Notes: generated by a model from the letters alone, not told the origin. Shown: positions 11,958-35,758, numbered from the stretch's first letter. The stretch is DNA of 64,000 nt from an uncultured Candidatus Competibacteraceae bacterium (GCA_964578885.1 CAZOEO010000005.1:91752-155751); one strand, 5' to 3'. Program-made: numbers and translations.

Positions 11958-11987
11958 GGGTGAGTGCTTGGTACAATGTTAAAAGAG

Positions 11988-12069: not shown

Positions 12070-12135
12070 AAAACCGTAAAACAACGGGGGGCAAATATAC
12101 GCTTTTTCGGAATAGAAAAAGAAAATGCAGAATTT

Positions 12136-16246: not shown

Positions 16247-18247
16247 ATGAACCAAATTCCATTGCTGCAAGATGCAGTGCTCATGCTGGGGCTTTCTGTC
16301 CTGGTGATTTATATTTTCCAGCGATTTCGGCTGCCTACGGTGATTGGTTTTTTGGCCACAGGCATTTTATTCGGGCCGCATGGGCTGGCTTTGATCGGTC
16401 ATCCTGAATATGCGCACGAGATTGAAATCATGGCAGAAATTGGGATTATTCTGCTGCTGTTTATCATTGGCCTTGAATTTTCCATTAAGGAGTTGGCAGC
16501 GCTCCGAAAAGTGGTGATTCTGGGAGGTTTTGGCCAAGTTGGACTTACAGTTGGATTCATTGCTCTGCTATCCTTTGGACTGGGACTTCCGTGGCCCAAA
16601 GGGATTTTTATGGGATTTTTATTTTCCTTAAGCTCCACAGCTATTGTGCTGAAGCTTTTACAGGAAAAAGGAACCATTCATGGACCTGCAGGCCGGATTG
16701 CTTTGGGACTTTTAATTTTTCAGGACATCATTGTGGTACCCATGATGTTGGTAACGCCGATGCTGGCCGGTGCAGAAGCAAACATTGGGACGGCATTGGG
16801 AATTTTACTTATGAAGGCCGCAGGTGTAACCATGGCGGTGATTGTACTGTCACGGTATCTGGTACCGAAAGTCCTGAGAGAAATCGCACGTACTAAAAGT
16901 CGGGAGTTGTTTCTGTTGTCTATTCTGGTCATTTGTTTTACCGTAGCCTTTGGCACCAGCGCATTGGGACTTTCTTTGGCTTTGGGAGCCTTCATGGCCG
17001 GCCTCACTATTTCCGGTTCGCCTTACAGCCATCAGGCCACCAGTCTGATCATTCCCTTTCGGGAGGTTTTTGCATCCTTCTTCTTTTTATCCATCGGCAT
17101 GCTCCTTGATATCCGCTTTATCACAGACCATTTTTTAGTCATCTCTGGGTTGGTACTTACAGTGGTGCTGGTAAAATTTTCCGTACTGGCGGGTGTGGTG
17201 CGTTTATTAGGCTTCCCGCTTCGTACCGCACTCCTTTCTGGATTTACTTTGTTTCAGGTCGGCGAATTCGCCTTTATCTTATCTGGCTTCGGACAAAAGT
17301 ATGGGCTCATGGCGGCAGAACAATATCAGTATTTTCTATCGGTCAGTGTGATTACCATGGCCATGACACCCTTTTTCATTTCTGAAGGAGCACGTTGGGT
17401 AAAAGCGCTGGAAAGTAAATTACCAGTCCCAATAGATCAGACGCCATCCTTTCAACCTGCATCAGCACTTTCTTCACAACAGTTGTCTGGACACGTCATC
17501 ATCATTGGTTACGGATTAAATGGACAGCATCTGGCGCAAGCCGCCAGAAGTCATGGCATTCCACATGTAGTCATCGACATGGAAGTGGCACTCGTAGAAC
17601 GTGCATTAAAAGAGGGAAGTCCCGCATTTTTTGGCGATGCCACACAAGGTTTTATCCTGGAAGAATTACATGTGTATAAAGCCAATGTGGTGGTCATCGC
17701 GGTATCAGACATGGTGGCTTCCAGAAACATTATATCCCAAATTCGGCATATTCATCAGAAAGTTCACATTATTGTTCGCTGTCACAATGTACAAGAAGCC
17801 GAAAGTTTATATGGTTTGGGCGCTGGAGAAGTAATCATTGATGCCATGGAGGCTTCGGTTGAAATTTTCACACGCGTCTTGCATCACTATCTGGTGGAAC
17901 CCATTCAAATTGCGGATTTTGCAGATAAAATCCGGACTTCAGAATGGCAAATGAGCCGACCCAGCAACTATACCTCCATGCCCATTTTGGCAGGTTTGCC
18001 CGAACTGAGAACGGTATCTATTCCCTTGGTAACCAACATTCCCGGAATCACGGAGGTTTCCGTACAACAAGCACTGCTTCGGGAAAAACATCATGTTTCC
18101 ATTTTGGCCATTCGGAGAGAAGGCGAATTAATCACCAAAATTGCGCCGGACACCTGTATGCATTTAGGGGACGTGCTGTATTTATTTGGCGAGGCAGATG
18201 ATATTCAAGCTTTTATAAACTTAGTTCGGGTAGATTTGTCCGCCTGA
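16247..18247 (+). CDS. monovalent cation:proton antiporter (CPA2, KefB/KefC-like) with TrkA-N and TrkA-C domains
   Basis: Roughly 12 TM helices followed by Rossmann GxGxxG (IIIGYGLNGQ) and a C-terminal TrkA-C-like region. Confidence 0.8.
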   Translation: MNQIPLLQDAVLMLGLSVLVIYIFQRFRLPTVIGFLATGILFGPHGLALIGHPEYAHEIEIMAEIGIILLLFIIGLEFSIKELAALRKVVILGGFGQVGLTVGFIALLSFGLGLPWPKGIFMGFLFSLSSTAIVLKLLQEKGTIHGPAGRIALGLLIFQDIIVVPMMLVTPMLAGAEANIGTALGILLMKAAGVTMAVIVLSRYLVPKVLREIARTKSRELFLLSILVICFTVAFGTSALGLSLALGAFMAGLTISGSPYSHQATSLIIPFREVFASFFFLSIGMLLDIRFITDHFLVISGLVLTVVLVKFSVLAGVVRLLGFPLRTALLSGFTLFQVGEFAFILSGFGQKYGLMAAEQYQYFLSVSVITMAMTPFFISEGARWVKALESKLPVPIDQTPSFQPASALSSQQLSGHVIIIGYGLNGQHLAQAARSHGIPHVVIDMEVALVERALKEGSPAFFGDATQGFILEELHVYKANVVVIAVSDMVASRNIISQIRHIHQKVHIIVRCHNVQEAESLYGLGAGEVIIDAMEASVEIFTRVLHHYLVEPIQIADFADKIRTSEWQMSRPSNYTSMPILAGLPELRTVSIPLVTNIPGITEVSVQQALLREKHHVSILAIRREGELITKIAPDTCMHLGDVLYLFGEADDIQAFINLVRVDLSA

Positions 18248-20308
18248 GCGCTGAAGGTTTGGTGAAGGGAATAAAAGATAAAACGCCGTTCCTTTCCCTA
18301 CTGCTGATTTAGCCCAAACCCGTCCGCCATGTGCTTCCATGATTTTCTTCACGATATACAGACCAAGGCCTGTGCTGGTTTCACCTAAAGTTCCGCTGGA
18401 TCCGCTGGAAAAAGGACGAAATAAAGTTGCACGTAGTTCTGGTGGAATGCCTTTACCATGATCACGAATCCGGAACAAGGTACTTTGGTCTGGCAATTGC
18501 CTTAACGTACAATGAATCACGCTTCCCGGATTGGAGAACTTGATGGCATTGTCCAGGACATTGGTAATGGCGCGGACGGTTTTATCCTGATCGCAAGCCA
18601 TCAGAAACTGGGCATGATTCTCCACTTTCAAAGAAATCTGTTTTCTTTTCAGTTTAGAGAAAAGGAGTTTTTGTGCTTCTTCAAGGACCTGCTGCGGAAG
18701 CATAATGTGCAGATGGAGCTGCATTTGTGGATCAGGCCGAATGGCATCTGATAAGTCCTGCAGCGTAAAAAGTCCAATTTTGGCGGAATGGCCCAATAGA
18801 TGCATTAAATGCTGGTTTTCTTTGGTAAAAAGCTTTCCTTCAGGACTATCCAAAAGTAAATCGCTCACCTGGGTTACATTGCCCAATACATTTCGCAAGT
18901 CGTGCGCAACGGTACTTAAAATATAACTTTTGTGTTTATCTGTAAGTTCCAGGTGTCGATGCGTGCGATGGAGCTGTTGGTTTTGCTGCTGCAACCCTTT
19001 CGACACCGCTTTAAACTTGGCATATCGCTTTCTCAGTGAAAACCATAGTATAAAAATGACCATAATCACCACAAAGAGGAGCAGTCCAAAAGCAAACCAC
19101 AATCTGCCCTGCAAACTTTTTGCCTGGATATGGTACCTTATGCTTTCCGCATAATTGGAGGCATCCATCATGTCTTGTTGCACATGTTCCAGTTGCAACA
19201 TTTTAGCTTGATAAATCCGGTCAATGGAATCAGCGGCCACCGATTGTTTAAGGCTAAAAGTGTAGGCGGCCTTAAAATCTCCGCGTTTTTGAGCCAGTTT
19301 CGAAAGCATTTGATAGTAATACCATTGATACCGGAATTCACGAATCAAATAGGTTGGTGCCAGTTCTTGTAAAAGTTGCTGTGCCAAATTTGGTTGTTTC
19401 AGGGCATCATAGACCAATGCTCCTATGACAGTGGCTCTACCAACAAAAATCTGACGATCGGCATGATGGGCAAAATGCAACATATTCTGAACCATCACTG
19501 GCTTGAGTCGTTCGGGGAAATAGGCCCACACGGCATGTGTCCAGTTGATATAGGAATAAGCCATGCCACTTTGGTTGCCGGTATGATAGGCAATTTGGAA
19601 AGCCCTTTGGAAACTGGACAAGGCAGGCGTTGGCAGGTCTTGTTTCAAATAACAAAGGCCAATGTTATTCAAAATATTTTGCGTCCAGTGGGCTTCATCC
19701 CAGCCTTCATTGGACTGCAGAATGTTACGAAAAGCCGCATGAAAATGATAAGCGGCCTTGTCATACGCTTGCTCTGAATAATAGAGCATACCCAGGTGAT
19801 TGTGCATGAGCGCAGCGAAATACGGCCAATAGATTTCTCGTGCCATAAGCTCGGCACGAAGTAGATACTTGGCTGTGGCGCGGTAATCACCTCTTTCAGC
19901 TGCTTTTGCACCAAGGAGCGTCAGGGTTTGAAAATACAGACGTTGCTTTGACAATGGAAAAAGCTCGTGGTTTCCGAGCCACTGTAAATGCATGAAGACC
20001 TTGGCCTGAACCTGCAGTGCTGGAGTAGATCTCTTATCTATTCTAATCCCCTCTGCATGAAATGCATACCAACGAAAAGCGCTATCTAACACGCTACATG
20101 CTTCGTCCTGGCCATATAGTGCGCAGACGTTGGTGGTATAAAAAAGTCGGGGAAAAGACGTGGATTTGGCTTTCACGCCAGCGTGCAATGAGCCCTGTGA
20201 CCAGAAACCCATAAGTCCTGCACATACGTATAAAAAACCGATGCTTTTGCGAAAACCTATCACTTCAGAAACAAAGGTAAACCTAAAACCGTTGTTTATA
20301 TTTACCAT
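18221..20308 (-). CDS. TPR repeat-containing sensor histidine kinase
   Basis: N-terminal TPR-like repeats, single TM, HisKA (TVAHDLRNVLGN) and HATPase_c (DNAIKFS, GTGLGLYIVKKIMEAHGG). No receiver domain. Confidence 0.75.
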   Translation of the reverse strand: MVNINNGFRFTFVSEVIGFRKSIGFLYVCAGLMGFWSQGSLHAGVKAKSTSFPRLFYTTNVCALYGQDEACSVLDSAFRWYAFHAEGIRIDKRSTPALQVQAKVFMHLQWLGNHELFPLSKQRLYFQTLTLLGAKAAERGDYRATAKYLLRAELMAREIYWPYFAALMHNHLGMLYYSEQAYDKAAYHFHAAFRNILQSNEGWDEAHWTQNILNNIGLCYLKQDLPTPALSSFQRAFQIAYHTGNQSGMAYSYINWTHAVWAYFPERLKPVMVQNMLHFAHHADRQIFVGRATVIGALVYDALKQPNLAQQLLQELAPTYLIREFRYQWYYYQMLSKLAQKRGDFKAAYTFSLKQSVAADSIDRIYQAKMLQLEHVQQDMMDASNYAESIRYHIQAKSLQGRLWFAFGLLLFVVIMVIFILWFSLRKRYAKFKAVSKGLQQQNQQLHRTHRHLELTDKHKSYILSTVAHDLRNVLGNVTQVSDLLLDSPEGKLFTKENQHLMHLLGHSAKIGLFTLQDLSDAIRPDPQMQLHLHIMLPQQVLEEAQKLLFSKLKRKQISLKVENHAQFLMACDQDKTVRAITNVLDNAIKFSNPGSVIHCTLRQLPDQSTLFRIRDHGKGIPPELRATLFRPFSSGSSGTLGETSTGLGLYIVKKIMEAHGGRVWAKSAVGKGTAFYLLFPSPNLQRSGGQIYPN

Positions 20309-20316
20309 TTGATTTT

Positions 20317-22359
20317 TTATCGGGAAATAGGAAGGCGAATCAAAAACAAAGTCCCGCTGCCTTCTTTGGTTTTAACGCGTATGGTTCCACGATGGGCGGT
20401 GACAATTTTTTTCACAATGTAAAGCCCCAGTCCGGTGGTTGGTTCACCCAATGTGCCTAGTACACCTGCGGTAAAGGGCCTGAATAATTTGGTTTCCATA
20501 CGGCGAGGAATGCCTGTTCCAAAGTCCCGGACACATAACTCCACTTCACTTAGGCCATGCTGTCGGATGAGGACCTTAATGATTCCCCCGGGTTTGGAAT
20601 ATTTTATCGCATTGTCCACAAGATTTATGAGGACACGAGTAATTTTTTCCCGGTCAGCAGCCACCAAAAAAGGCGCTTGATTCTTTGTAATGAGCTCAAT
20701 ACGTTTTTGTCTGCATTTATGATGTAGCAAATCCCGAAGTTCGGCCAAAAGTGCTTCCGGCAACAGAGGAACCACATCTAAATTAACTTGATTTCCAGGT
20801 CGGATGGCGTCATTCAAATCCTGAATGGTATTCAGACCCAGCTTAGCAGATGTTTTCAATAACTTGAGCAAATGGCGCTGCTCTTGTTCGGGAAGCGCAT
20901 CGGATGGTCCCTCGGCTATAATGTCGCTCACCTGTATCACATTGCCCAGAACATTTCTTAGGTCATGGGCCACTGTGCTCAAAATGTAGTTTTTGTGCTT
21001 ATTGGCCATTTCCAAATCCCGGTTGGCTCGTGCAAATTGCCCGGATTTTTGCCGGAGATCCTTGGACAAAATTTGTGTTTGGGTAAAACGACGCCTCAGG
21101 TTCATCCAAAGAAAAAATATGACCACTACAAATACCATCAGTACACCGCCACCAAGGAATATGGCGTTAGACTGAATTTCTCGTAACCTTAGAGAATGAA
21201 CGAGTCCTTCTTTCGAATCGCGCAATCGGTTCAAGCCAATTTGTGCTTCCTCCAATTGAATGAGCTTGTTTCCACGTCTGTTATGAATGAGGTCGGTGAG
21301 CGTTCTGGACGTTTCCTCATAGGCGAAGGCCTTTTCATAATGCCCCTTAGAGGCTTCTAAGCGGGCCATGAGCCTGTAATAAGATTCCCGTGACCGGTCA
21401 TCCCGAACTTGGTCCATGCGCTCATCCAATAAGGCAAGCCAAATTCCAGCTTCTTCGAAATGGTGTTTTTTTTCTAAAAACTCAGCATATGCAAGAATCC
21501 CACGTGCTTCCAATTGCACATTATTGCATCTGGCAGATTTGCAGATTCCAGATTGAAACAAAGAATCTGCCATCGCCATGTTTCCCATCTGGGCATAATT
21601 TCGAGCCATATTGACCAGGGAAACGGCCTCACCCACCAAATTTTTATCCCAAACCGACACTCGGTACGCTTGTGTAAAATAGTGGTTGGCCCTGGCAAAA
21701 TCCCTCATCTGCATATAGCACAAGCCCAAATTATTCAACACATTCTGAATAAGATACTTTCTCTCGGAACGCTGATTCTCCTGCAATAAACTTCGCAAGG
21801 CCATGGAAAAATGAGGAATGGCCTGTTCATACCCGCCTTCTGAATAAAACAAGATTCCCATATAATTATTGAGAATCCCATCATAATACGGCCAAAAAAT
21901 CTCATTTTCAAACTCTTTGGCCATAAGCATCAAGCGAATAGATGGCCCGAAATCGCCTCTTTCATAATACGTGGCGCCTAAAGAAACTAAGGTTCTGAAA
22001 TAATTTAAATCATCTACGCCAGGCCCCAAATCCACAACACGTTGCAAAAAATAAAGCGAGGAATCCAGAACGCCGAGCCGATTATAATAACCACCAAGGG
22101 CCGCATAATAATGCGACCATACCCGTAAAGGCTTCGTGTGATCCATGAAATTGGTCATGCGTTTCGCTATTTCCGGACATGGTAAAAAATCGGAATCATG
22201 CACCTGCGTGCAACTATCCATTTCTAATACCAATCGGTCGAAGGCCAAGTCGCCACTGGAAATTTCCTGCGCTTTAATCACAGAAAACACCAAAAAGCAG
22301 ATCACAAGACATAGCCTACCAATCATAATATCGGTTAGGTAAATTGGTGCGTAAGCCAA
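20317..22359 (-). CDS. TPR repeat-containing sensor histidine kinase (paralogue of the adjacent kinase)
   Basis: Same architecture and near-identical kinase-core motifs (STVAHDLRNVLGNV, GLGLYIVKKI) as 18221-20308. The likely start is a little downstream of the ORF start, at MIGRLCLV (about 22326). Confidence 0.75.
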   Translation of the reverse strand: MAYAPIYLTDIMIGRLCLVICFLVFSVIKAQEISSGDLAFDRLVLEMDSCTQVHDSDFLPCPEIAKRMTNFMDHTKPLRVWSHYYAALGGYYNRLGVLDSSLYFLQRVVDLGPGVDDLNYFRTLVSLGATYYERGDFGPSIRLMLMAKEFENEIFWPYYDGILNNYMGILFYSEGGYEQAIPHFSMALRSLLQENQRSERKYLIQNVLNNLGLCYMQMRDFARANHYFTQAYRVSVWDKNLVGEAVSLVNMARNYAQMGNMAMADSLFQSGICKSARCNNVQLEARGILAYAEFLEKKHHFEEAGIWLALLDERMDQVRDDRSRESYYRLMARLEASKGHYEKAFAYEETSRTLTDLIHNRRGNKLIQLEEAQIGLNRLRDSKEGLVHSLRLREIQSNAIFLGGGVLMVFVVVIFFLWMNLRRRFTQTQILSKDLRQKSGQFARANRDLEMANKHKNYILSTVAHDLRNVLGNVIQVSDIIAEGPSDALPEQEQRHLLKLLKTSAKLGLNTIQDLNDAIRPGNQVNLDVVPLLPEALLAELRDLLHHKCRQKRIELITKNQAPFLVAADREKITRVLINLVDNAIKYSKPGGIIKVLIRQHGLSEVELCVRDFGTGIPRRMETKLFRPFTAGVLGTLGEPTTGLGLYIVKKIVTAHRGTIRVKTKEGSGTLFLIRLPISR

Positions 22360-23929
22360 ACCAGAACCAGCTGGTCATCTGGGTAGATTGGGTATTTTCA
22401 AAATGCCTTAGCCGGGTTCCGGCTTCTATACGAAACCCATAAGCCGGATTCAGAATGTACGCGGCAGAAAGTTCCAGTACCATCAGGGATGTGCGCAGGC
22501 CTTGACCCACCACGTTGCCATATTCCTGAGGATGATTTAAATCCAGATTATAAATATTTTGCCCATAATTCATTCCAGCAGAATCCAAGCCAACTATGGC
22601 ATAGCTTAAACGGGAATTAAACATCCATCGGTCGGTGCGATATTTCAGGAATCCAAGTAATTCCCAAAAATTGGCGCCCAAAGGATGAGCCAGACTTTGG
22701 TTATAATGCGCGTAATTCTGGTTGGTTCGCCAGTGATTATACGTATAAGGACGGACATAATTGAACTCAGTCTGTAAATGTAATCCCTTCAATCCAAATA
22801 CATTGAAATATTTATATCCCAATTGAAACGCCTGCTTATTGGCCCTCCATCCGGATTGGGTTTTGCCTAAAAAGTTTCCAAGGTTCAATTCATCCAACAT
22901 CAATTGACCATACAACTGATGACTGGCGGTAATCTGCCATTTCAAATTAGCACCAAGTAGGGCATTATCATAAGATCCCAAACCATATTCCACAGGACGG
23001 AAAAAGATAATGGGATTCATGTAACTCCATTCCAAACCTCTATTCACACCCGTGCTATCCGTTCCGCTAAACATGACGCCTTCGAACAAACCCAGATTTA
23101 ATCCACGGGCAATGTTGAAATCCAGGTAATGAAATGCACCATACTTCTTTGTATTCAGGTTGTCTCCTGCCAAACTTGGACGAATGTCCTGAAACTCTCC
23201 CCAAAGATTGGTGTACTTAAATCGCCAGAATTGAGTGTTGATTTTCAGGTAAGGATAATTAAAAGCCACATCGGAGAGCAACAAAGAGCGATAACCATCA
23301 CCAATGAAATTTTTACCAATCCCAAACTCAATATCCACCCATTGTGCCGGAGCAAAAACCACATAACCATTGGCCCAGGCATAATCGTACCCCACCGTTT
23401 TAAACGGCTTCGACCGACCTTGTCCGGGAATGATGCCCATGGTATCGGCCACATCAGACAAATAACCCGGCAAAGCGGCCTGGTTTTCATAAAAATCCGA
23501 ATAAAAAGAAAACATTTTTCCCAGATTACCACGCACGGTAACACCACGGGTGTTGGTCCACAAGGTTTTATCTCCGGAGAAATCACGCCCCATGGTAAAA
23601 TCAAACGCAGGATTAACCAAAATTTGACCCTGGGGAAAAGAAATCCGAACCAAATCTTCCGAAAAAAGTTTACGGCCAGTCCAGGTACGGGCGAAACTCC
23701 CACGATACGGCTTTACGCCCAGAACTGAATCCGGATTAATAATTGGCCGAAGGGCCGATAAACGATAGGGCTTTACTGCGGAAAAAAAAGGAGCCCTGGT
23801 CTCATGAGCAGCCGCTTCTAATTGCAATTGATACTCATTAAAAAAAGGCTGATGGAAGTGCTGTGCCTGAAGCAAGGCTATTGTTCCCCAAAAGCCTGCG
23901 AAAACGGGGATCAAAAATTTCATGCCCAA
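22316..23929 (-). CDS. outer-membrane beta-barrel protein (function unknown; possibly Wzi-like)
   Basis: Signal peptide. Abundant alternating aromatic residues and an aromatic C-terminus (YYDW). 537 aa. Confidence 0.35.
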   Translation of the reverse strand: MGMKFLIPVFAGFWGTIALLQAQHFHQPFFNEYQLQLEAAAHETRAPFFSAVKPYRLSALRPIINPDSVLGVKPYRGSFARTWTGRKLFSEDLVRISFPQGQILVNPAFDFTMGRDFSGDKTLWTNTRGVTVRGNLGKMFSFYSDFYENQAALPGYLSDVADTMGIIPGQGRSKPFKTVGYDYAWANGYVVFAPAQWVDIEFGIGKNFIGDGYRSLLLSDVAFNYPYLKINTQFWRFKYTNLWGEFQDIRPSLAGDNLNTKKYGAFHYLDFNIARGLNLGLFEGVMFSGTDSTGVNRGLEWSYMNPIIFFRPVEYGLGSYDNALLGANLKWQITASHQLYGQLMLDELNLGNFLGKTQSGWRANKQAFQLGYKYFNVFGLKGLHLQTEFNYVRPYTYNHWRTNQNYAHYNQSLAHPLGANFWELLGFLKYRTDRWMFNSRLSYAIVGLDSAGMNYGQNIYNLDLNHPQEYGNVVGQGLRTSLMVLELSAAYILNPAYGFRIEAGTRLRHFENTQSTQMTSWFWFGLRTNLPNRYYDW

Positions 23930-23980: not shown

Positions 23981-25498
23981 TCAACTATGGGAAGAAAGGG
24001 TTGATTGAAGCGCAATAAGGGCTTCTGCCATGATGCGCTGGTCTGCCAAACGCGGCACTTTATGCTGCCCCCCAAGTTTTCCTTCCGCTTTCATGTAAGC
24101 CTGAAAACTTCCCGGTTGTAATGGTAAAATCCGAAGGGGACGCGTTACTTTACCATCTATCAAATCTTTGTAATACACATTTCTCCGACACATAGCCCGA
24201 TCCAAGGCCAGGGCAAAAGCATCCAAATCAGTGGGCAATCGATCAAATTCTACCAGCCAATCATGGCCGGGCAAGCCCCCTTCCTCTGGCTGAACAAGCG
24301 GCGCCACATGAAATTCGCGGACGGTCGCCTCACTTTCGACCAATACTTCCTGCATGGCGCCTTCCACTTCTTCGGCGATCACGTGTTCTCCAAACGCTGA
24401 AATAAAATGTTTGATTCGTCCCGTCACTACAATTCTGTAGGGATTCAATGAAACAAACTTGACCGTATCGCCGATGAGATAGCCCCATAAACCTGCATTC
24501 GTGTGCAAAACAATCGCATAATTTTCGCCAAGCTGTACGTCTGCTAAAGCATAACGAGTCGGCTGAGGAAGATGTGCTTCTTTTATCGGAATAAATTCAT
24601 AAAAAATACCCACCCAGGTTTGCAGCAAAAGGCCAGGTTTTTCCTGTTCGTCCTGAAAAGCGATAAAACCTTCACTTGCGGGATATGTTTCAATCGTTTT
24701 TACAGATTTACCAAGACTTTCTTCAAATTTTTTTCGGTAAGGCGAATAATTCACACCTCCATATACGTAAAGACTGAGATTCGGAAAGATTTCCCTGACA
24801 TTCTTTTTACCAGTAACGGTTAAAAGCCGATCCAGATACATTTGGGCCCAGGAGGGAATTCCTCCGATTAAACGCATGTCTTGCTTCACCGTTTCGCGAA
24901 CAATGGCATCGAGCTTGGTTTCCCAGTCATCAATACAATTGGTTTCCCAGGAAGGCAACTGATTTTTCCTAATCCAGCCCGGAATATGATGGTTTACAAT
25001 GCCTGAAAGTCTGCCGGTGAGAATGCCTCCTACTTTTTCCAACACAGGACTTCCGGATAAAAAAATCATGCCACCATCAAAAGCACTGGCGTCGCCGGTT
25101 TCCGCCACATAACAGAACACAGCGTTTCGAGCCGATCCCACATGGAAAGGCACGGAATCTTTGGAAATGGGAATCAGTTTGGTTCCACTGGTGGTTCCGC
25201 TGGTTTTGGCAAAATATAAAGGCTTTCCGGGCCAAAGCACATCCGATTCACCCGCTACCACACGAGAAATGTAGGGCCGAAGCTGTTCATAATCGGCCAC
25301 AGGAATCTGCGCTTTAAACGAATCGTAGTCCCGAATATTCTGAAAATGATGGTCCCGGCCGAAGGCTGTGTTTTTTGCCTTTTCAACCAGACGATGGCGA
25401 AGTTGCTGCTGATCTAACAGTGCCCGCCTTGCTTTTCTCCGTATTCCGGCCGCCATTAAGCGCGCCAGAGGCAATATTAATGCTGATTTCCAACCCAT
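23981..25498 (-). CDS. GH3 auxin-responsive promoter family protein (acyl-adenylate forming)
   Basis: N-terminal FGRDHHF and the adenylation motif YFAKTSGTTSG-TKLIP are characteristic of GH3/ANL-superfamily homologues. Confidence 0.75.
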   Translation of the reverse strand: MGWKSALILPLARLMAAGIRRKARRALLDQQQLRHRLVEKAKNTAFGRDHHFQNIRDYDSFKAQIPVADYEQLRPYISRVVAGESDVLWPGKPLYFAKTSGTTSGTKLIPISKDSVPFHVGSARNAVFCYVAETGDASAFDGGMIFLSGSPVLEKVGGILTGRLSGIVNHHIPGWIRKNQLPSWETNCIDDWETKLDAIVRETVKQDMRLIGGIPSWAQMYLDRLLTVTGKKNVREIFPNLSLYVYGGVNYSPYRKKFEESLGKSVKTIETYPASEGFIAFQDEQEKPGLLLQTWVGIFYEFIPIKEAHLPQPTRYALADVQLGENYAIVLHTNAGLWGYLIGDTVKFVSLNPYRIVVTGRIKHFISAFGEHVIAEEVEGAMQEVLVESEATVREFHVAPLVQPEEGGLPGHDWLVEFDRLPTDLDAFALALDRAMCRRNVYYKDLIDGKVTRPLRILPLQPGSFQAYMKAEGKLGGQHKVPRLADQRIMAEALIALQSTLSSHS

Positions 25499-25501
25499 TG
25501 G

Positions 25502-26383
25502 TTAAAATTGAATCATGGATTCCGGATCCAGGGGAGTCCCATTGAACCAAAGCTCAAAATGCAAAAATGGGCCTTTTCCCTGTTCCAGGGATTTTCCGGC
25601 AATACCAATCGGTTCTCCGGCACGAACAAAACTGCCCACTTTTTTCAATAAAGTAGCATTATTCTGATAAATAGACACCAGATTTCCAGGATGTTGAACC
25701 GCCAGGACATAACCTGTTTCGGCGGTCCATCCGGCAAAAACCACCGTACCTTCCAGACAAGCCAACACAGGAGATTCCTCCGAGGTCATCACGTCTACGC
25801 CAAAATCTTTGGTTTCCCGCTGAAAGGGAGAAATGACTTTTCCCCGTAAAGGCGGAAAGAAGAGCATGCCTTCCAAGGCATTGTTTTGCTGAATCCTGGG
25901 CTGAACAGTAAAGCGTTCTTCTTCCTCTACGGCTTCTCTCAACTGCGCTTCTGCACGACTTATCCGATTCACCGGTTGTACCAAACGAAGTGCGGAGTCA
26001 GGTTTTTCCGGCATCGGTTCTTCCCACTTTTTTCCGCTGGCCACTTGCTGAAAAACCATGAGTAAACGCGCCTGATCTAACATCGCTGCTTCTAGAGAAT
26101 CTGCCGTTTTAGAAAGGGAACGTACCAATTTGCGCTGCTCCACGTCGGCGTAACCGGGAATATACTCGCGCAGCCCCGTGAAAGCCACCAAATAAAGGGT
26201 GAGACTCACCATCACCAACACGAGAAAAGAAAGTACCACCACAATGTTCCAACCAGAAAGCCGAAAGGTGTATTTGGCCTCGTAATGGTCGTCGTGCATC
26301 ACCAAAATCCGATACCGATACTTCCATTTCTCGAAAAAGTTGGGTTTGGCGGGACGATGCGCTTTTTTTTGTGCCATAAACAA
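25502..26383 (-). CDS. M23 family metallopeptidase
   Basis: N-terminal TM anchor. C-terminal LytM motifs (HPGNLVSIYQN..., PFLHFELW). Confidence 0.75.
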   Translation of the reverse strand: MFMAQKKAHRPAKPNFFEKWKYRYRILVMHDDHYEAKYTFRLSGWNIVVVLSFLVLVMVSLTLYLVAFTGLREYIPGYADVEQRKLVRSLSKTADSLEAAMLDQARLLMVFQQVASGKKWEEPMPEKPDSALRLVQPVNRISRAEAQLREAVEEEERFTVQPRIQQNNALEGMLFFPPLRGKVISPFQRETKDFGVDVMTSEESPVLACLEGTVVFAGWTAETGYVLAVQHPGNLVSIYQNNATLLKKVGSFVRAGEPIGIAGKSLEQGKGPFLHFELWFNGTPLDPESMIQF

Positions 26384-27409
26384 TCAGTTGGCCCAGACAG
26401 AAGTCCCTTCTGTGCAGTTGGTACAAATATCGATTTCTTTTCTAGACCGCAAAATAGAAGCTCTAAACTGCTGATAACGTTCCCCGTACCAAATCTCCTT
26501 CATGGTTTGGTGCTGAAAGTCGCCCAAAACATGTTGGGCATCTTTATCGAAACAGCAAGGCACCACTTTTCCATCCCAGGTTACCACGCAACCTTGCCAC
26601 ATTCGCCAGCAATGGTTCATTAATTCTCCCCGAATTTCCCAGGTTCCATCGGGCAATTTACGATAACGACTTCGGGCATCATTTTCCAGAATGAGGGGAT
26701 GATCGTCGCCCGGCGCATAGATTTGTGCCGTTTTCATGACCACTTTATCCGCACCAATCTCTTTGGCTTTTCGAGCAATAAGGGGTAATTCCTTTTCATT
26801 GGGCTTCAACACCAAAGCTTGCACAACCAATTCGGGAAACGCGCTATTGGCTGCTTTTTTTGCGTCTACCAGGTTTTGTAATCCTTCCCAGACTTTGTCC
26901 AGCTTGCCTCCTACCCGATATGCTTCGTAGGATGCTTGTGTGGCGCCATCCACCGAAATAATCATCCGATGCAATCCACTTTCCACCACACGTTTGGCGG
27001 TATCCTTAGACAAATAATGTCCATTGGTGCTGGTGGCCGTAAAAATCTTATGATCTGCGGCATACCGAACCATATCCAGGAATTTAGGATGCAGAAAAGG
27101 TTCTCCTTGAAAATAAAAAGTCAGATATTGGAGATGTGGCGCCACATCGGCAATGATTTTCCGATATAATTCCTGGTCCAACATGCCCGTGGGTCGTGAA
27201 AAAGAGCGGAGGCCACTTGGGCATTCCGGACATCTTAGGTTGCAGGCGGTGGTTGGTTCAATGGACATGGCCACGGGCAAGCCGGACATGCGGGGCAAGC
27301 CAAGGCGTTTGGAGCGATGGTAAGAAAAGAAAATGCGGCTTGCGTTCAGCAGGCGTGCCGGACTCAACTGAGCCACCATGGCATGCAGGGAAGCGACGCC
27401 GAAGATCAT
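26384..27409 (-). CDS. radical SAM protein with C-terminal SPASM-like cysteine-rich domain
   Basis: CNLRCPEC (CxxxCxxC) radical SAM cluster motif. C-terminal CWRMWQGC...CCFD...CTNC region. Start ATGA-overlaps the rbfA stop. Confidence 0.75.
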   Translation of the reverse strand: MIFGVASLHAMVAQLSPARLLNASRIFFSYHRSKRLGLPRMSGLPVAMSIEPTTACNLRCPECPSGLRSFSRPTGMLDQELYRKIIADVAPHLQYLTFYFQGEPFLHPKFLDMVRYAADHKIFTATSTNGHYLSKDTAKRVVESGLHRMIISVDGATQASYEAYRVGGKLDKVWEGLQNLVDAKKAANSAFPELVVQALVLKPNEKELPLIARKAKEIGADKVVMKTAQIYAPGDDHPLILENDARSRYRKLPDGTWEIRGELMNHCWRMWQGCVVTWDGKVVPCCFDKDAQHVLGDFQHQTMKEIWYGERYQQFRASILRSRKEIDICTNCTEGTSVWAN

Positions 27410-27768
27410 GATTCAGGCTGGTCCTTCTCGTTGCGGTCCAACAATTGGGAGATGCGGTCGGCGTAGGCGGCAGAATCGTCATGGAAGAAGGCCAGTTCCG
27501 GCACAATGCGAAGTTGATGACGCAGTTTCTGACCGAGGATGTAGCGGATTTTCGATTTGTTGTCTTCGAGTTTTTCCATGACGGCCGGGGCGGGTTCTTT
27601 GCCAAAAATGCTGAAATAGACTTTGGCAAAAGAGAGGTCTGGAGACACGCGCACCACGGTGGCGGTAACCATGCTACCGGGTGAAACCCAAGCGAGGTCA
27701 CGAAGGATAAGTTCACCGATTTCTTTGAGAATCAGTCTGGCTACTTTTTGTTGTCGCGTGGTTTCCAT
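27406..27768 (-). CDS. rbfA: ribosome-binding factor A
   Basis: METTRQQKVARLILKEIGELI... matches the RbfA KH-like fold family. Start refined to the Met at 27768. Confidence 0.85.
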   Translation of the reverse strand: METTRQQKVARLILKEIGELILRDLAWVSPGSMVTATVVRVSPDLSFAKVYFSIFGKEPAPAVMEKLEDNKSKIRYILGQKLRHQLRIVPELAFFHDDSAAYADRISQLLDRNEKDQPES

Positions 27769-27940: not shown

Positions 27941-28014
27941 TCCTCCTTAGCTCAGTTGGTTAGAGCATCTGACTGTTAATCAGAGGGTCGCTGGTTCAAG
28001 TCCAGCAGGGGGAG
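27941..28014 (+). tRNA. tRNA-Asn (anticodon GTT)
   Basis: TCCTCCT acceptor stem, D-arm GCTCAGTTGGTTAGAGC, anticodon loop CTGTTAA, T-arm GGTTCAAGTCC. Close to E. coli tRNA-Asn. No encoded CCA. Confidence 0.9.
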
Positions 28015-28017
28015 CAG

Positions 28018-28050
28018 AAAGCCTCACAGCAATGTGAGGCTTTTTTTGTT
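28018..28050 (+). terminator. rho-independent terminator after tRNA-Asn
   Basis: 8-bp stem gcctcaca/tgtgaggc with a gcaa loop, followed by TTTTTTT. Confidence 0.6.
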
Positions 28051-28086
28051 TGTTTTGAAAGTGACTATGTATTGCTACTCCAAAGG

Positions 28087-28524
28087 CTAAAACGGCTGGG
28101 GTTCAATCATCGGAAGAAAGGCATTATGCAAAGGCGTACCTTTAAAAGAAGCAAACATTACACCTCTCGTAGTGGAAATGGAGATGCTGTTTACAATATC
28201 TAATAACTGCTGTGGCAAAGCGATTTTCCCCGTAGATTCAGTTTTGATTATCGCATCAAAGTTCTTTAGTTCAAATATGCAATTCACAGAAATTGCTCCT
28301 AGGGCTATAGATTGATTTTCGGTGAGTATTTCAACATGAACGATGGCAAACAGGAGTTTATCTAGAGCATCTACTTTAGTTTCAATATTGATATTGAATT
28401 TAAAATTGCCGGGATTGATCGTTCCTGGAGCGAGCATATATTGATTACTGCTAAGTAATTCTATGCCCTTTAGTTGAATTTCAATATTCCTACTTTTACT
28501 CGTTTCTATTTTCTTTCGTTTCAT
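28087..28524 (-). CDS. hypothetical protein
   Basis: 145-aa ORF in an AT-rich region downstream of the XRE gene. No motif recognised. Confidence 0.3.
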   Translation of the reverse strand: MKRKKIETSKSRNIEIQLKGIELLSSNQYMLAPGTINPGNFKFNINIETKVDALDKLLFAIVHVEILTENQSIALGAISVNCIFELKNFDAIIKTESTGKIALPQQLLDIVNSISISTTRGVMFASFKGTPLHNAFLPMIEPQPF

Positions 28525-28560
28525 TTTATAACAAATTATTGCCTAGCCCGTGTATAGCTT

Positions 28561-28962
28561 TTATATAGGTTTGTCTTTATAAGAAATTGGATCTTCGTTC
28601 ACGGAATAATTTTTCGTTGAATACGTAATGTACTGGTATGAAGCGGCAGAAAATGTATTTGTATAGACATCCTTTACTTGTTTTTGCGCAAAAAGTACAG
28701 CAATCTCCACACCGAGAACCTGCGAAATTTGCACAAGTGTTTCAACCGTAAAATTATGAGCACCACTCAACCACTTTGAAATTTCAGGTTGAGTTTTGTT
28801 TAGCTCCGAGGCAAATCTAGTCTTTGACCAACCTTTAGACCTGATGAGATCTTCAATATTGGCTGCCAATTGCATTTTGACATTTGTTTGCTCCATTTCC
28901 AAAGGAGTTGCCTCATTCTGTAATTCTTGGATTAATGGGCTATTATATTCTCTCGCTTTCAT
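28561..28962 (-). CDS. XRE-family helix-turn-helix protein (putative antitoxin / HigA-like)
   Basis: HTH_XRE signature (WSKTRFASELNKTQPEISKWLSGAHNFTVETLVQISQVLGVEI). Sits immediately downstream of the Gp49-like gene. Confidence 0.6.
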   Translation of the reverse strand: MKAREYNSPLIQELQNEATPLEMEQTNVKMQLAANIEDLIRSKGWSKTRFASELNKTQPEISKWLSGAHNFTVETLVQISQVLGVEIAVLFAQKQVKDVYTNTFSAASYQYITYSTKNYSVNEDPISYKDKPI

Positions 28963-28982
28963 GATGTTGTCTGTTTTGTTTG

Positions 28983-29480
28983 TTATTCTTCGTCTTCAAA
29001 AAAGTAAAAATTACCTTCCAGTTCTGGCTTGTCTCTCGACATGTATATTTCTCCGCTGTCCATTCGCCTTGCTATGTCTTTGGCGTATTCAATCATTCTT
29101 GTCGCTTCCTCAGTCAACTTTGTATCATCTTGCCATGCCATCGTTTCCTTTGTTTTCAACCCGCCACCTCCGAGAATTATAACGTCTGAACCGTATCTGA
29201 TGCAATACAATCTTAGATTTTTTTCGGGCAGATCGTACAATGCACAAACACCATCGCCATACCGACCTTCAAAATGCTTGAAATAAGAATGCCTTGCACC
29301 ATGCTTTGTACCTATTAGCTTCAGCCTGTTATTTATATCTCTTACTTCTTCCCTGAAATCAGCTATGTTTTCGTTTATAAAAACATCATACAGCGTCAAA
29401 CCTCCTCTTTCTGGAATGATGGAATACACTGTACACTGCCTTCCACTCAAAAGACTTAATTTGACAATCTCGTATTCCAC
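28983..29480 (-). CDS. Gp49-like / HigB-type (RelE/ParE superfamily) putative toxin, extended form
   Basis: Core pattern GDGVCALYD...RLYCIRYGSDVIILGGGGLKTKE resembles the Gp49 (PF05973-like) motif G-D-G-hy-x-E-L-R ... Y-R-hy-hy-Y ... hy-hy-hy-L-x-G-x-x-K-K. Located upstream of the XRE partner. Confidence 0.4.
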   Translation of the reverse strand: MEYEIVKLSLLSGRQCTVYSIIPERGGLTLYDVFINENIADFREEVRDINNRLKLIGTKHGARHSYFKHFEGRYGDGVCALYDLPEKNLRLYCIRYGSDVIILGGGGLKTKETMAWQDDTKLTEEATRMIEYAKDIARRMDSGEIYMSRDKPELEGNFYFFEDEE

Positions 29481-29748
29481 TTGGCTTTTAGCCTATAAAT
29501 GATGTATAATTTAACTTTTAACGTATAAAAGGCGGGGGATTTACATCCTTTTTCAAATTTAAGAAGACATTTCCACATTTTCATAACTTATAAGTTAATT
29601 TTATGCTTTAACATCGACCAAACACTAGTTGTCGCCAATATAAATCCACCTAAAATTTTGTTAAGCAAGTAATTAAGTGTTGCATAAGCACGCAACTCAT
29701 CCCAGAATTGGTTCGAGAATAGACCATTGTGGGGAGCAGAAAAATCAA

Positions 29749-29781
29749 GGGGTTACATAAACGTAACCCCTTTTTTATTTC
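29749..29781. terminator. perfect 8-bp stem hairpin + T-run in an AT-rich non-coding region
   Basis: ggggttac-ataaac-gtaacccc followed by ttttttattt. No annotated + strand gene upstream. Confidence 0.35.
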
Positions 29782-30014
29782 CCATTGTAACACAAATCGA
29801 ATTTTTTGGGGTTTCACTTGCTGCAATAACCTTGTGAGTGAATGCGGCTTTTTTTGTCTTTCAGCGAGCATTTTTTCAATGATCTTGTCCAGGGAAAATG
29901 AATATTTTTGAGACAAATCAAACTAATCATGAAAAGAAAGCCAATCGACTTTCCAAGGCGTTGGGGATGATTAACCATACCCTTGTCAAAGATGAAATTT
30001 AAACTGAGATAAAA

Positions 30015-30431
30015 ATGAAAAAGCTATATTTTACTTCAACCATACTAACACTGCTTTTATCTTTTGGATGCGGTGATATTACACCTAAGAAAAAAGACAA
30101 AAATCCTGAAAGCGATAGGGTGTTTTTAGAATTAACTGAGAGGGAAATGAACGGCATTAAAATTAGTTTAGAACAGGGCGTTGAAATCTGTGGGTGCATA
30201 AAAACATCAAGCAAGGATTTTGAAGCAGTATGGGCTGCGGCTTGTACGGTAAAAAATGGACTTACAGATGTGGGCGTTTGGGCGATTACAAAAAATGCAG
30301 GTACATTTAGTTCTGTATCGGCCTATACCACACTCGTCAGTGATTTTGGAGAACATCCTGATGTATCCATGAGGGACGACGGATTTCAAGAGGCTCATGA
30401 CAAGGCAAAAGAAATGTTTCCATGTAAATAA
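30015..30431 (+). CDS. hypothetical lipoprotein
   Basis: Signal peptide with lipobox LLLSFGC. 138 aa. Confidence 0.4.
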   Translation: MKKLYFTSTILTLLLSFGCGDITPKKKDKNPESDRVFLELTEREMNGIKISLEQGVEICGCIKTSSKDFEAVWAAACTVKNGLTDVGVWAITKNAGTFSSVSAYTTLVSDFGEHPDVSMRDDGFQEAHDKAKEMFPCK

Positions 30432-30656
30432 GTTGTTTTAAAGCCCAAAGGTCAAGCATCACTTAGGCTCATCACTAAAAGATTCGGGTTAAGCAAATTA
30501 TTTCACAAGGGGCTTCCCGCCCCTTTTTTATTCCTTCGTGTACTGGGGCTGTGCTTTTCGAACAGGTTCAATGGATACAAAATAGCCGGTTTAAGGAACA
30601 AAAAACACCCTTTTATCAACTTAAAAACACATCTCTAACGTCCAAACAATAAAAAT

Positions 30657-31643
30657 ATGAACAAAACAATTCTACATCTCAGTTCGGTATTCATGGCCAA
30701 ACTGCTGCTAACGCCCATGGTTTTTGCCCAAGGGGTTGGTATTAACACCGCGGGAGCCACCCCGGATCCATCGGCCATTTTGGATGCTTCAAGCACAACG
30801 CAAGGCTTTTTACCGCCACGCATGACCACCGCACAGCGAAATGCCATTAGCGCTCCGGCAGAGGGTTTAATGATATACAACACAGATTTAAAATGCATAC
30901 AGTTCAACAAAGGCACGTCTGCGATCCCCAACTGGTCGTGCACCGATGGAACCAATCAGAGTAATCCTTGTGGAACCAGCACGGTAACTTTTATCTATAA
31001 TGGAGCGCCCGTAACCTATGGCACCGTCGTAGGTGCAAACTACAGGTGCTGGCTCGACCGTAACTTAGGAGCAAGCCAAGTGGCAACCTCCAGCACAGAT
31101 CATCTATCTTATGGCGATTTCTTCCAATGGGGAAGAGGCGACGATGGGCACCAACGTATCAACTGGACCAGTGCCACCTCCGGCACGGCTGTGAACGTTT
31201 CTTCCAGTGCCACAAGCAATTCAATAACGCCTGGCAATGCTGATTTTCTCGGCCAAGGCGTGAATAACTGGTACACCGGAATGTCGCCCCACCCTGACTC
31301 GTTATGGCAAGGGGTTAACGGCATCAACAACCCTTGTCCAGCAGGTTGGAGAATACCTACACTCGCTGAATTAATTGCTGAAAAAGACAGTTGGAGCAGT
31401 GATGACCCGGCCGGAGCTTTTGCCTCACCGCTTAAGTTGCCCATGGCTGGCATGCGCGCGTGGAACCAGCCTAACACTTTATGGAATGTCGGTGACCATG
31501 GCTTCTATTGGAGCAGCACCATTAGTAACAATCCACAAGGCGGCGTTTCACGCTACATCTACTTCGATTGGTGGAATTCAGCAACCCAAATAAGCCAAAC
31601 CCAACGAACCAATGGCGTCAATGTTCGTTGCATTAAGGATTAA
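30657..31643 (+). CDS. secreted protein with Fibrobacter succinogenes major paralogous (FISUMP) domain
   Basis: Signal peptide. FISUMP hallmarks YRCWLDRNLGA, FQWGR, CPAGWRIPTLAEL, GFYWSST. Its N-terminal module is shared with the protein at 61486-62709. Confidence 0.7.
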   Translation: MNKTILHLSSVFMAKLLLTPMVFAQGVGINTAGATPDPSAILDASSTTQGFLPPRMTTAQRNAISAPAEGLMIYNTDLKCIQFNKGTSAIPNWSCTDGTNQSNPCGTSTVTFIYNGAPVTYGTVVGANYRCWLDRNLGASQVATSSTDHLSYGDFFQWGRGDDGHQRINWTSATSGTAVNVSSSATSNSITPGNADFLGQGVNNWYTGMSPHPDSLWQGVNGINNPCPAGWRIPTLAELIAEKDSWSSDDPAGAFASPLKLPMAGMRAWNQPNTLWNVGDHGFYWSSTISNNPQGGVSRYIYFDWWNSATQISQTQRTNGVNVRCIKD

Positions 31644-33697: not shown

Positions 33698-35758
33698 TTA
33701 GTGCATCACTACAAACTTCTGAGTTACTTCTTTTCCACCAGCGGTGAACGTGAAGAAGTAAGTTCCTGAAGCATATTGAGTAGTGTTTACATTCACCTCA
33801 TGGCTTCCGGACTGTTGCATGCCTGGAGCGATGGTTTCCATGATACGACCTTGGATATCACGCACTTCAATGGTTACATTAGAAGCATCATGCAAAGTGT
33901 ATTCAATTTTGGTGAAAGCATCCGCAGGGTTAGGATAATTCTGGCTGAGGAAGAACTGACCATAGTCACCAATCTCAGTAGCTACACCTAAAGGCAGATC
34001 TTTGAATCCAAGACGGATACCAGCCACAGAGTTTCCGGAAATAATGAACCAGTCTCCGGTGTCATCATCATTACCATTAGGAAGGTAGTACAGAGAAATC
34101 TGTCCTTGGTGACGGTCGCCGGAGGTAGCACCTACTACGATTTTAGACGTAGGATCGTTTGGCGCAGTTGGAGGTGAATCCAATTTGATACCACCATAGA
34201 AGAAACCGTTGGTTAAGGTAGTAGGAGCAGTCAACTTCATGCGAAGGAATTTTCCTTGCTCACCTTGGTTCCATGCAGGAATGGTGAATGGGTTACCAAC
34301 AGCAATCGGAGTGAAAGCACCGGTTTGGTTAGAACGGGTAGCGATGAAAGGCTCCAATACAGTACCTGGGGTAGTTACACGTCCATTTCCAGCATCAGCG
34401 CGGAAATATACTTCGATGAAATATACGTCAGCAGGTTCAAACACTTCGAAGCGAGAAACCACTTGGAAAGGCTCAAGATTGATGGAAGAGAAAGCGGAAG
34501 GGCTATTGTTGTGGAACAAGAAATCAATGTTTCCACCAGTAGCCGTGATGCGATCCATGGCATAGATGGTGTCATTGATGGTCCAGTTGTGGGTAAACGA
34601 GTTATCGTTGGGGTTCATGGCATCTGGACCACCTAAACCGAAAGAAATAATTTCAGTGGTGTAGTTGGCTACAGTTGTCATGGGAGTGATAGGGAAATCA
34701 CGACGGATAAAAGTGGTAGCACCTGGGTTTAGGTTGTAGGTAACAGAGTCACCGGCAACCATGGTAGTACCATTCATAATCCGGAATACGGTACGTACTT
34801 GTTGTGCAGAAGAACCGTTGTTGGTTACTTGGGCACCCCAGAAGATAGAGTCACGTGCAGAAATAACATCTACAGGAACCTGATACCATTTTCCGAAAAG
34901 GGTGTCACCGGAGGTGAAAGCCGCTACGTTCATGAATTCGAAGGTGTAGAGAGGATCAGCCTGAGCAATCTCATAAGCCTGTGGCGTTCCAATCACGATG
35001 TCATCAATCATCCAACCATAGTAGCCTCCATCCCAGTTGAAACGGATTTGTACGCTATCAGCACCACCGGCAGCAGCCATAGGAATGAATACGGTTCCGG
35101 TATCTTGGGCATTTACATCTGTGGTCGCCGTCCAAGCATTGATCCATTGACCAGCAGAGCCAATGCGATAATCTACTTTTGGAGATGAGATGAAAGCGCG
35201 AAGCTTATGTTCGAACTTCAAAGTAGGCGCAGCCGAAGAAGACATGTCGATCCAGGGAGACTCCAGGTGAGACACTTGAGGAGAAGGAGCGGGTCCTGTT
35301 CCAAGTGCACCTGCACAGGTAGAACCTTGGTCATCTAGCCAGTTAGAGTCAAAAATCATAAAACCATTGTTGGCTGTTGTACTCACAATGGGTGACCAGT
35401 TTGGAGCTGAGTAGCAAGCACCACGTGATCCAATGGTGTTGTTTGGGTTGGTGCTAGGACCACGATATTCCCAAGCCGCATCAACGTCGTTGGCCAAAGC
35501 ACCTTGCGCGCCAGACGAAGACTGACGGAAAGTATTAGTCCATGCGCCGTTTTCACCAGCCAATCCATTGCCCCATGTTTCGATATAAACTGTGTCAATG
35601 AACGGGGAAGCAGTACCTCCTAAAAGAGGAATTTGATTTTGCTCGGTGCGAACTGCATCATTTGCAACTGCCGAGCGGAGTGCCCGGAATTGTACAGATT
35701 GTGCAGACACCATGCCAACTGTGGCTATGGATAAGCCAAGAGTAACGATGTGTTTCAT
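33698..35758 (-). CDS. T9SS type A sorting (Por_Secre_tail) domain-containing secreted protein
   Basis: N-terminal signal peptide. C-terminal ~80 aa beta-sandwich-like tail (…SGTYFFTFTAGGKEVTQKFVVMH) is typical of T9SS C-terminal domains. Confidence 0.65.
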   Translation of the reverse strand: MKHIVTLGLSIATVGMVSAQSVQFRALRSAVANDAVRTEQNQIPLLGGTASPFIDTVYIETWGNGLAGENGAWTNTFRQSSSGAQGALANDVDAAWEYRGPSTNPNNTIGSRGACYSAPNWSPIVSTTANNGFMIFDSNWLDDQGSTCAGALGTGPAPSPQVSHLESPWIDMSSSAAPTLKFEHKLRAFISSPKVDYRIGSAGQWINAWTATTDVNAQDTGTVFIPMAAAGGADSVQIRFNWDGGYYGWMIDDIVIGTPQAYEIAQADPLYTFEFMNVAAFTSGDTLFGKWYQVPVDVISARDSIFWGAQVTNNGSSAQQVRTVFRIMNGTTMVAGDSVTYNLNPGATTFIRRDFPITPMTTVANYTTEIISFGLGGPDAMNPNDNSFTHNWTINDTIYAMDRITATGGNIDFLFHNNSPSAFSSINLEPFQVVSRFEVFEPADVYFIEVYFRADAGNGRVTTPGTVLEPFIATRSNQTGAFTPIAVGNPFTIPAWNQGEQGKFLRMKLTAPTTLTNGFFYGGIKLDSPPTAPNDPTSKIVVGATSGDRHQGQISLYYLPNGNDDDTGDWFIISGNSVAGIRLGFKDLPLGVATEIGDYGQFFLSQNYPNPADAFTKIEYTLHDASNVTIEVRDIQGRIMETIAPGMQQSGSHEVNVNTTQYASGTYFFTFTAGGKEVTQKFVVMH

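Follow-up and report, generated by a model that had tools for sequence, protein, structure and literature searches.

In Proteobacteria, the gene rbfA belongs to the nusA-infB-rbfA-truB operon, and tight junctions between genes are commonplace in bacteria and nothing special alone. The founding Twitch radical SAM enzyme is BtrN, a sugar-acting 2-deoxy-scyllo-inosamine dehydrogenase (PDB 4M7T), and EnvC and NlpD are LytM factors with degenerate active sites that activate murein hydrolases. Among bacterial GH3-like enzymes, OlsH of the planctomycete Singulisphaera acidiphila was shown in 2025 to be an ATP-dependent N-acyl-ornithine (lyso-ornithine-lipid) synthetase (PMC12493201). About 90% of the more than 7500 bacterial OlsH homologues lie in Bacteroidota, where their function is uncharacterised; N-acyl-ornithine is argued to be an improbable product of theirs and other amino acids are likely to be used, as OlsF/OlsB make the ornithine lipids there (PMC12493201, PMC12971839). 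Here, we analysed a stretch of 64,000 nucleotides (the window) listed under an uncultured Candidatus Competibacteraceae bacterium (GCA_964578885.1 CAZOEO010000005.1:91752-155751), in which relatives of these proteins stand side by side: positions 23981-27768 hold a block of four genes encoding RbfA, a radical SAM enzyme, an M23 peptidase-family protein and a GH3 protein. We consider it likely that this block, whose genes share one direction and are probably co-transcribed, is a mixed operon of conserved genes specific to one lineage, without a hidden modification system.

The four open reading frames lie on the minus strand, with near-zero spacers, in the order rbfA, radical SAM, M23, GH3:

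27768-27406, minus strand: rbfA, 120 amino acids, from an ATG at 27768; first gene of the block
27409-26384, minus strand: radical SAM gene, 341 amino acids
26377 (ATG) or 26383 (TTG) to 25502, minus strand: M23 gene, 291 amino acids from the ATG
25498-23981, minus strand: GH3 gene, 505 amino acids
27769..27940, minus strand: upstream non-coding region, presumed promoter region; its far edge is a divergent tRNA-Asn

Pfam domain matches confirmed all four families as an earlier note on this DNA had named them, and the sequence bore out the tight, operon-like coupling that it described. The TGA stop of rbfA overlaps the ATG start of the radical SAM gene by 4 nt (ATGA at 27409-27406), and 3 nt separate the M23 stop from the GH3 start, both as first read. 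The radical SAM stop, said to abut the M23 start, does so with the TTG at 26383 (0 nt); the ATG at 26377, which leaves a gap of 6 nt, is more probably the start, because MAQKK... fits the N-termini of the homologues. RbfA itself was clear (PF02033, 93.8 bits against a cut-off of 34.7, E=9e-27; NCBIfam TIGR00082, 71.3 bits against 51.15).

A consensus scan of the minus strand found no convincing terminator inside the block, terminator-like sites being no more frequent than in shuffled sequence, and a consensus scan for internal promoters found nothing above the shuffled background with a sigma-70 model, which is ill-suited to Bacteroidota. Between 21 and 31 kb, Rfam models (E<=0.1), those for riboswitches and leader RNAs included, matched nothing but the tRNA-Asn. 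The presumed promoter region contains TACCTTTG, which resembles what we take to be the Bacteroidota -7 promoter motif, TAnnTTTG. One promoter, together with translational coupling, would thus link the expression of the block genes.

The block is found, in the same order and orientation, in four distinct relatives, represented by the locus groups L081/82, L083-86, L087-89 and L172. The radical SAM protein is 94, 72 and 62% identical to that of the window in the L081, L083 and L087 groups, and the GH3 protein is 65% identical in L172. The length of the block in the relatives is 3769-3788 nt. The overlap between rbfA and the radical SAM gene is kept in L081, L083 and L087, and in L172 the two genes as called lie about 140 nt apart. 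The tRNA-Asn upstream of rbfA (anticodon GTT, 27941-28015 on the plus strand in the window, divergent from the block) is also kept in L081 and L083. Otherwise, the flanks differ wholly among the block-bearing relatives:

L081 flank: a methyltransferase, then ClpX-ClpP-trigger factor
L083 flank: M49 peptidase-fumarase
L087 flanks: upstream, an amidohydrolase and a CN-hydrolase; downstream, a 178-residue open reading frame, then fumarase
L172 flanks: upstream, DnaB/thioesterase/ACPS; downstream, Kazal/ECF-sigma

The linkage thus extends beyond this genome, as the earlier note would have it, but only within one clade. We surveyed 80 loci centred on orthologs of the radical SAM gene (52-60% identical, +-7 kb) in GTDB representative genomes, using tblastn and hidden Markov models derived from the clade; the taxa include Cyclobacteriaceae, Chryseolinea/Ohtaekwangia, Roseivirga, Ekhidna, Hymenobacter and Dyadobacter, as well as Cytophagales, Flavobacteriales, Chitinophagales and Saprospiraceae. 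Within this distance neither rbfA nor GH3 was found at any of the 80 loci, and M23 was found at a single one, as a weak and distant match; at the loci covered, rbfA is a neighbour of the radical SAM gene in the block-bearing clade only. A second survey, by tblastn and a hidden Markov model, covered 80 metagenome loci centred on GH3 (55-62% identical, +-6 kb) and again revealed neither rbfA nor the radical SAM gene (0/80 each), while an orthologous M23 gene lay directly upstream of GH3 in 15 of them. Each sample of 80 was taken among the first 600 pattern matches listed and is not exhaustive. In the trees of both the radical SAM and the GH3 proteins (neighbour-joining, on alignments made with hidden Markov models that derive from the block-bearing clade itself), the block-bearing sequences are monophyletic with 100/100 bootstrap support. 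The block therefore has a single origin, with inheritance inside one lineage, and a single evolutionary event is weak evidence for a shared function.

Outside the clade, each gene keeps other company. Radical SAM orthologs stand head-to-head with lnb, 20-150 nt apart, at about 37 of the 74 assessable loci, all of the Cytophagales type, for example:

L053:5763-6953: lnb, with the radical SAM gene at 7001-7990

The lnb gene encodes the Bacteroidota lipoprotein N-acyltransferase (Pfam Lnb_N and 5TMH_Lnb), and the paper describing it does not mention a radical SAM neighbour (PMC11573676). The two further radical SAM relatives L170 and L171 (61 and 59% identical) neighbour lnb and sucAB-lpd; other neighbours of the orthologs are sucA/sucB/lpd, a MacB-type FtsX permease, inositol monophosphatase (IMPase) and rsmI. 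GH3 is followed by dxr at 38 and by rseP at 31 of 87 loci, GH3-dxr-rseP being the commonest context (e.g. L125:1105-3847). Preceding GH3 at these 87 loci are a 242-residue multi-pass membrane protein (26), M23 (22), GT2 (18) and a LolA-like protein (8), and upstream of M23 in the GH3-centred loci lie yicC, gmk and a nadD-like gene. These contexts are of a housekeeping or envelope-related kind, each restricted to particular lineages. In the window, the only one of the usual neighbours present is rseP (44384-45745, on the other strand, 19 kb away); lnb, dxr and sucB were not found there.

One part of the block has a wider distribution. Of the 77 loci that could be assessed, 23 have M23 and GH3 side by side, and on the GH3 tree these 23 make up three groups. 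In L173, which lies beside the block-bearing clade on that tree, M23 stands 2 kb upstream of GH3 with one opposite-strand gene between them. The M23-GH3 pair is older than the block.

The GH3 protein carries the Pfam domains GH3, GH3_M and GH3_C (PF03321, PF23571 and PF23572; 134.7, 54.8 and 56.9 bits, all above cut-offs), and its PDB matches are plant GH3/JAR1, which places it among the acyl-acid amido synthetases. Its nucleotide-binding motifs TSGTTSG (residues 99-105), YPASEG (272-277) and YxIGD (340-344) are invariant in the alignment of homologues. By analogy, its expected chemistry is the ATP-dependent coupling of an amine with a carboxylic (fatty) acid. The only NCBIfam match was to the OlsH model, NF052613 (E=7e-128), and covers the full length (residues 22-495 against model positions 34-508 of 524). 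We did not assign the protein to OlsH or OlsHI, since its score of 427 bits falls under the equivalog cut-off of 620 and no olsI alpha/beta-hydrolase gene is found in the block of the window or of the relatives; the genes adjoining GH3 in the window are M23 and one for a protein without a family match. The statement that the roles of bacterial GH3 proteins are unknown is outdated since the characterisation of OlsH (PMC12493201). This GH3 family is large, with at least 8000 candidates, and its top matches across orders are 56-66% identical, as befits a core gene rather than a sporadic biosynthetic cluster. In the literature, we found nothing that links GH3 with M23.

The M23 protein begins with a membrane anchor, which a linker connects to a LytM domain at the C-terminus (Peptidase_M23, PF01551, 77.2 bits), and its closest PDB match is the LytM domain of EnvC (1e-13). 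Its description as an endopeptidase holds for the domain but not for the active site of the window copy. In the ortholog alignment, the window reads FGVD for HxxxD, YQNN for YxHN and FLHFE for HLHFE, so that of the residue set of an active M23 peptidase (H-x3-D, the H in YxHN, and HxH) F-x3-D, Q and FxH are left. The 94%-identical relative (L081:1616-2491) shows the same substitutions (H to F, H to Q, H to F), so that both copies lack three of the five catalytic residues, and one is lost in L083 (L083:1914-2792), while L087 and all orthologs outside the clade retain HxGxD, YKHN and PHLHFE. We take the catalytic and zinc-ligand roles of these residues to be those known from LytM and lysostaphin. 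The ortholog family is thus predicted to consist of active metallopeptidases and the window copy has probably lost peptidase activity; it could serve as a regulator in the manner of EnvC and NlpD, or be decaying. Because orthologs of other lineages keep the complete set, the degeneracy is recent and confined to the window and L081, with a partial loss in L083. A copy that is likely inactive also weakens the case for M23 as the processing protease of a pathway. Neither the EnvC nor the NlpD equivalog model of NCBIfam was reached (48 bits against a cut-off of 270, and 35 against 311), and no FtsEX or amidase gene lies next to the block in the window or in the L081, L083 and L087 neighbourhoods.

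The radical SAM protein is a clear member of its superfamily (Radical_SAM, PF04055, 54.6 bits against a cut-off of 29.5), with a cluster motif CX3CX2C (C56/C60/C63) that is invariant in an alignment of 18 homologues. It also matches the SPASM domain (65.9 bits), as the earlier note had recognised, but the motif for a second auxiliary cluster that marks peptide maturases is missing and its closest solved relative is BtrN. Specifically, the two-cluster SPASM pattern of seven cysteines (CX2CX5CX3C and a downstream cysteine) does not occur in the sequence or the alignment. Six C-terminal cysteines are invariant (C267, C274, C285, C286, C329 and C332), and the protein ends 9 residues past C332, so that, with CX2CX5CX3C missing, a second auxiliary cluster could not be accommodated. 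Cysteines on either side of a beta-hairpin and a C-terminal CxxC, by which Twitch enzymes are recognised, are both present. We therefore predict a Twitch-type enzyme (a truncated SPASM) with one auxiliary-cluster site, C267/C285/C329/C332. A helical N-terminal extension of about 45 residues is also conserved.

Among solved structures, BtrN was the best match by sequence (E=5e-15), with both the core and the C-terminal domain aligned; BlsE, PqqE, anSME (E=7e-4) and DesII were weaker. An AlphaFold model of moderate confidence (predicted local distance difference test 72, predicted template modelling score 0.77) retrieved BlsE, MoaA, anSME, BtrN, DesII, SuiB, PqqE and SkfB at similar scores in Foldseek, with EpeE also among the matches; the modelled fold confirms the SPASM/Twitch class but cannot separate sugar from peptide substrates. 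No NCBIfam model reached its cut-off, the top one being TIGR04317 (130 bits against 380). This model and TIGR04311, both for uncharacterised "maturases", were rejected as the family of the protein, their scores lying far under the cut-offs. The earlier note had also considered that the enzyme might prove to be of a characterised housekeeping family such as a tRNA/rRNA methylthiotransferase. This was not borne out: no curated NCBIfam model came up to its cut-off, and neither MiaB/RimO-type methylthiotransferase domains (UPF0004, TRAM) nor RlmN/Cfr appeared among the Pfam matches or the best 25 of 47 NCBIfam matches. The family comprises at least 8000 candidates, and when the first 600 pattern matches from GTDB genomes were checked, 598 proved genuine. 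Across orders, identity within the family is 55-60% and the top matches are 56-66% identical, with named matches at about 60% in Cyclobacteriaceae, Saprospiraceae and Flavobacteriales. Such abundance and identity across orders fit a core gene, unlike a sporadic RiPP (ribosomally synthesised and post-translationally modified peptide) maturase.

Taken together, we infer that the genes of the block do not share a pathway. Some observations weigh against this reading. The block has outlived at least four independent rearrangements of its flanks with its length preserved, which makes selection for co-expression possible. The M23-GH3 adjacency recurs in three groups of the GH3 tree, and the usual neighbours of the radical SAM gene (lnb and the MacB-type permease) and of GH3 (dxr, rseP and the LolA-like gene) include envelope-related genes, so that a loose functional theme is possible.

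The same observations, with L173 and its M23 gene 2 kb upstream of GH3, would fit a reading in which the radical SAM, M23 and GH3 proteins act in one pathway of the cell envelope, scattered in most Bacteroidota and consolidated here, with rbfA as a passenger that provides growth-rate-linked transcription. Such a module might, for example, synthesise and tailor N-acyl amino-acid or amine lipids, coupled to local remodelling of peptidoglycan or to lipoprotein maturation; OlsH provides the precedent of a bacterial GH3 enzyme that makes a membrane aminolipid precursor (PMC12493201). We nevertheless think this module unlikely. At the loci surveyed, the radical SAM gene never lies within 6-7 kb of GH3 or of an orthologous M23 gene outside one monophyletic clade, and the lnb-radical SAM and dxr-rseP-GH3 contexts are themselves lineage-restricted. 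The block has been retained here although M23 lost its catalytic residues, and we found no direct evidence for a link between any two products. A bolder version, in which the Twitch enzyme, M23 and GH3 form a single undescribed Bacteroidota envelope pathway, such as one that forms an N-acyl amino-acid or amine lipid, or a lipoprotein-linked acyl group, and tailors it by radical chemistry, seems to us more doubtful still. If it were true, the genes of this pathway would be dispersed elsewhere, beside lnb, lolA-like genes, dxr and rseP, and the operon of this lineage would reveal their association.

The earlier note had proposed an unrecognised modification system (RiPP-like, or aimed at a ribosomal protein or peptide); we took this to extend to rRNA, and to mean that the radical SAM enzyme would modify a peptide, M23 cleave it and GH3 form an amide. 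SPASM/Twitch enzymes do include peptide maturases (the fold matches contain SuiB, SkfB, PqqE and EpeE), the stop of rbfA runs into the radical SAM start, and the radical SAM protein falls in no characterised family; yet this proposal is highly improbable, given an adjacency of rbfA and radical SAM confined to one clade, radical SAM and GH3 genes that are found phylum-wide, 55-66% identical and with housekeeping neighbours that change from lineage to lineage, unlike sporadic RiPP clusters, a Twitch-type enzyme without CX2CX5CX3C, a degenerate M23 active site in the window, and junctions (-4, 0-6 and 3 nt) that leave no space for a precursor gene. The search for nearby small open reading frames that the note had suggested found none conserved: comparison of the 600-nt flanks of five block-bearing loci by tblastx and blastn yielded only the tRNA-Asn, and a RiPP cluster with an adjacent precursor was rejected on this comparison. 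Pfam and NCBIfam scans of the four proteins reported no RiPP recognition element (RRE) or PqqD-type domain, although a highly divergent RRE could escape them. Overall, we found no evidence for a common substrate, or for a RiPP or ribosomal-protein modification pathway, among the block genes.

We thus favour the mixed operon, for which we propose the following history. The M23-GH3 pair would have come first. A single event in the ancestor of an uncultured Bacteroidota clade would have set rbfA and the radical SAM gene upstream of this pair, with vertical inheritance of the block since then. In this way, rbfA would have been joined to three Bacteroidota-wide genes that are usually sited elsewhere, and whose usual neighbours include envelope-biogenesis genes. 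M23 would be a membrane-anchored peptidoglycan endopeptidase that has decayed here to a catalytically dead LytM domain, now a regulator or non-functional. GH3 would be an acyl-adenylate-forming ligase that couples a carboxylic (fatty) acid with an amine, in the way that OlsH makes N-acyl-ornithine.

Several features of the surroundings were also recorded. Even against the 94%-identical L081, the window shows a rearranged order beyond GH3. In L081, ClpX, ClpP, trigger factor and an M48 peptidase follow GH3 after one methyltransferase gene (L081:5793-9609); in the window, the same genes lie at 8494-14415, about 10-14 kb off and in inverted orientation. The region between holds an aminotransferase, a Na+/H+ exchanger with TrkA domains, two histidine kinases and a 537-residue protein, which points to a recent rearrangement or insertion beside the block in the window. 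The gene for the 537-residue protein (22316-23929, minus strand) ends the interval next to the block, its start lying 51-57 nt past the GH3 stop; it is downstream of the block in no relative, and at its 3' end it shares 44 nt with the start, as called, of the next histidine kinase gene. The protein, which has no Pfam or NCBIfam match, may be an outer-membrane beta-barrel, as its N-terminus resembles a signal peptide and its C-terminal residue is aromatic. The histidine kinases (18221-22359, minus strand) are two tandem paralogous TPR-containing sensors of 695 and 680 amino acids, absent from the loci of the relatives; their best NCBIfam match, the Porphyromonas FimS model, is far under its cut-off.

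On the other side, the tRNA-Asn is directly followed by a strong hairpin terminator (28016-28045), beyond which comes a low-GC stretch (0.37 against about 0.46). This stretch encodes an HTH_3 (XRE-type) protein at 28561-28962 on the minus strand, plus several small open reading frames without a family match. In this region (27941-30450) an element may be integrated at the tRNA-Asn; no integrase was seen there. Further along lie an open reading frame whose weak match to the Fib_succ_major (Fibrobacter paralogous) domain stays under the threshold (30657-31643) and a gene for a 686-residue protein with a type IX secretion system C-terminal sorting domain (33698-35758), both of which agree with the window coming from a member of the Bacteroidota.

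As an operon, the block is of low importance, being a lineage-restricted arrangement of conserved genes. Its residual value lies in a BtrN-like Twitch radical SAM enzyme and an OlsH-related GH3 ligase, both Bacteroidota-wide and uncharacterised there. The M23-GH3 pair, the head-to-head lnb-radical SAM pair and the block of this clade are cheap leads for the biogenesis of envelope lipids and lipoproteins in Bacteroidota.

Set against the described systems with which we began, each product of the block shows both likenesses and differences. The radical SAM enzyme aligns with BtrN, its best solved sequence match, over residues 274-334: C285 falls on the BtrN cysteine that follows the beta-hairpin, C329/C332 fall on the BtrN CxxC, C267 fits by spacing only, and a single auxiliary [4Fe-4S] site is predicted. 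It differs in length (341 against about 250 amino acids), in its N-terminal extension and the two additional invariant cysteines C274 and C286, in an identity below 20% in the fold alignment, and in being a Bacteroidota core gene rather than part of an antibiotic cluster. The window M23 protein resembles factors of the EnvC/NlpD type, EnvC LytM domains being its best PDB matches, in lacking the zinc-binding and catalytic histidines and in the membrane anchor and linker that precede its LytM domain, whereas its own orthologs elsewhere keep HxxxD/H/HxH. The GH3 protein shares with OlsH a full-length match, the conserved nucleotide-binding motifs and the predicted ATP-dependent ligation of acid and amine, but scores 427 bits against the cut-off of 620 and has no adjacent gene for an OlsI-type alpha/beta-hydrolase. 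As a whole, although the combination of rbfA, radical SAM, M23 and GH3 has not been described previously, the block resembles the mixed-function housekeeping operons of bacteria, in which unrelated core genes are read from one promoter across tight or overlapping junctions, conserved within a lineage and shuffled between lineages.

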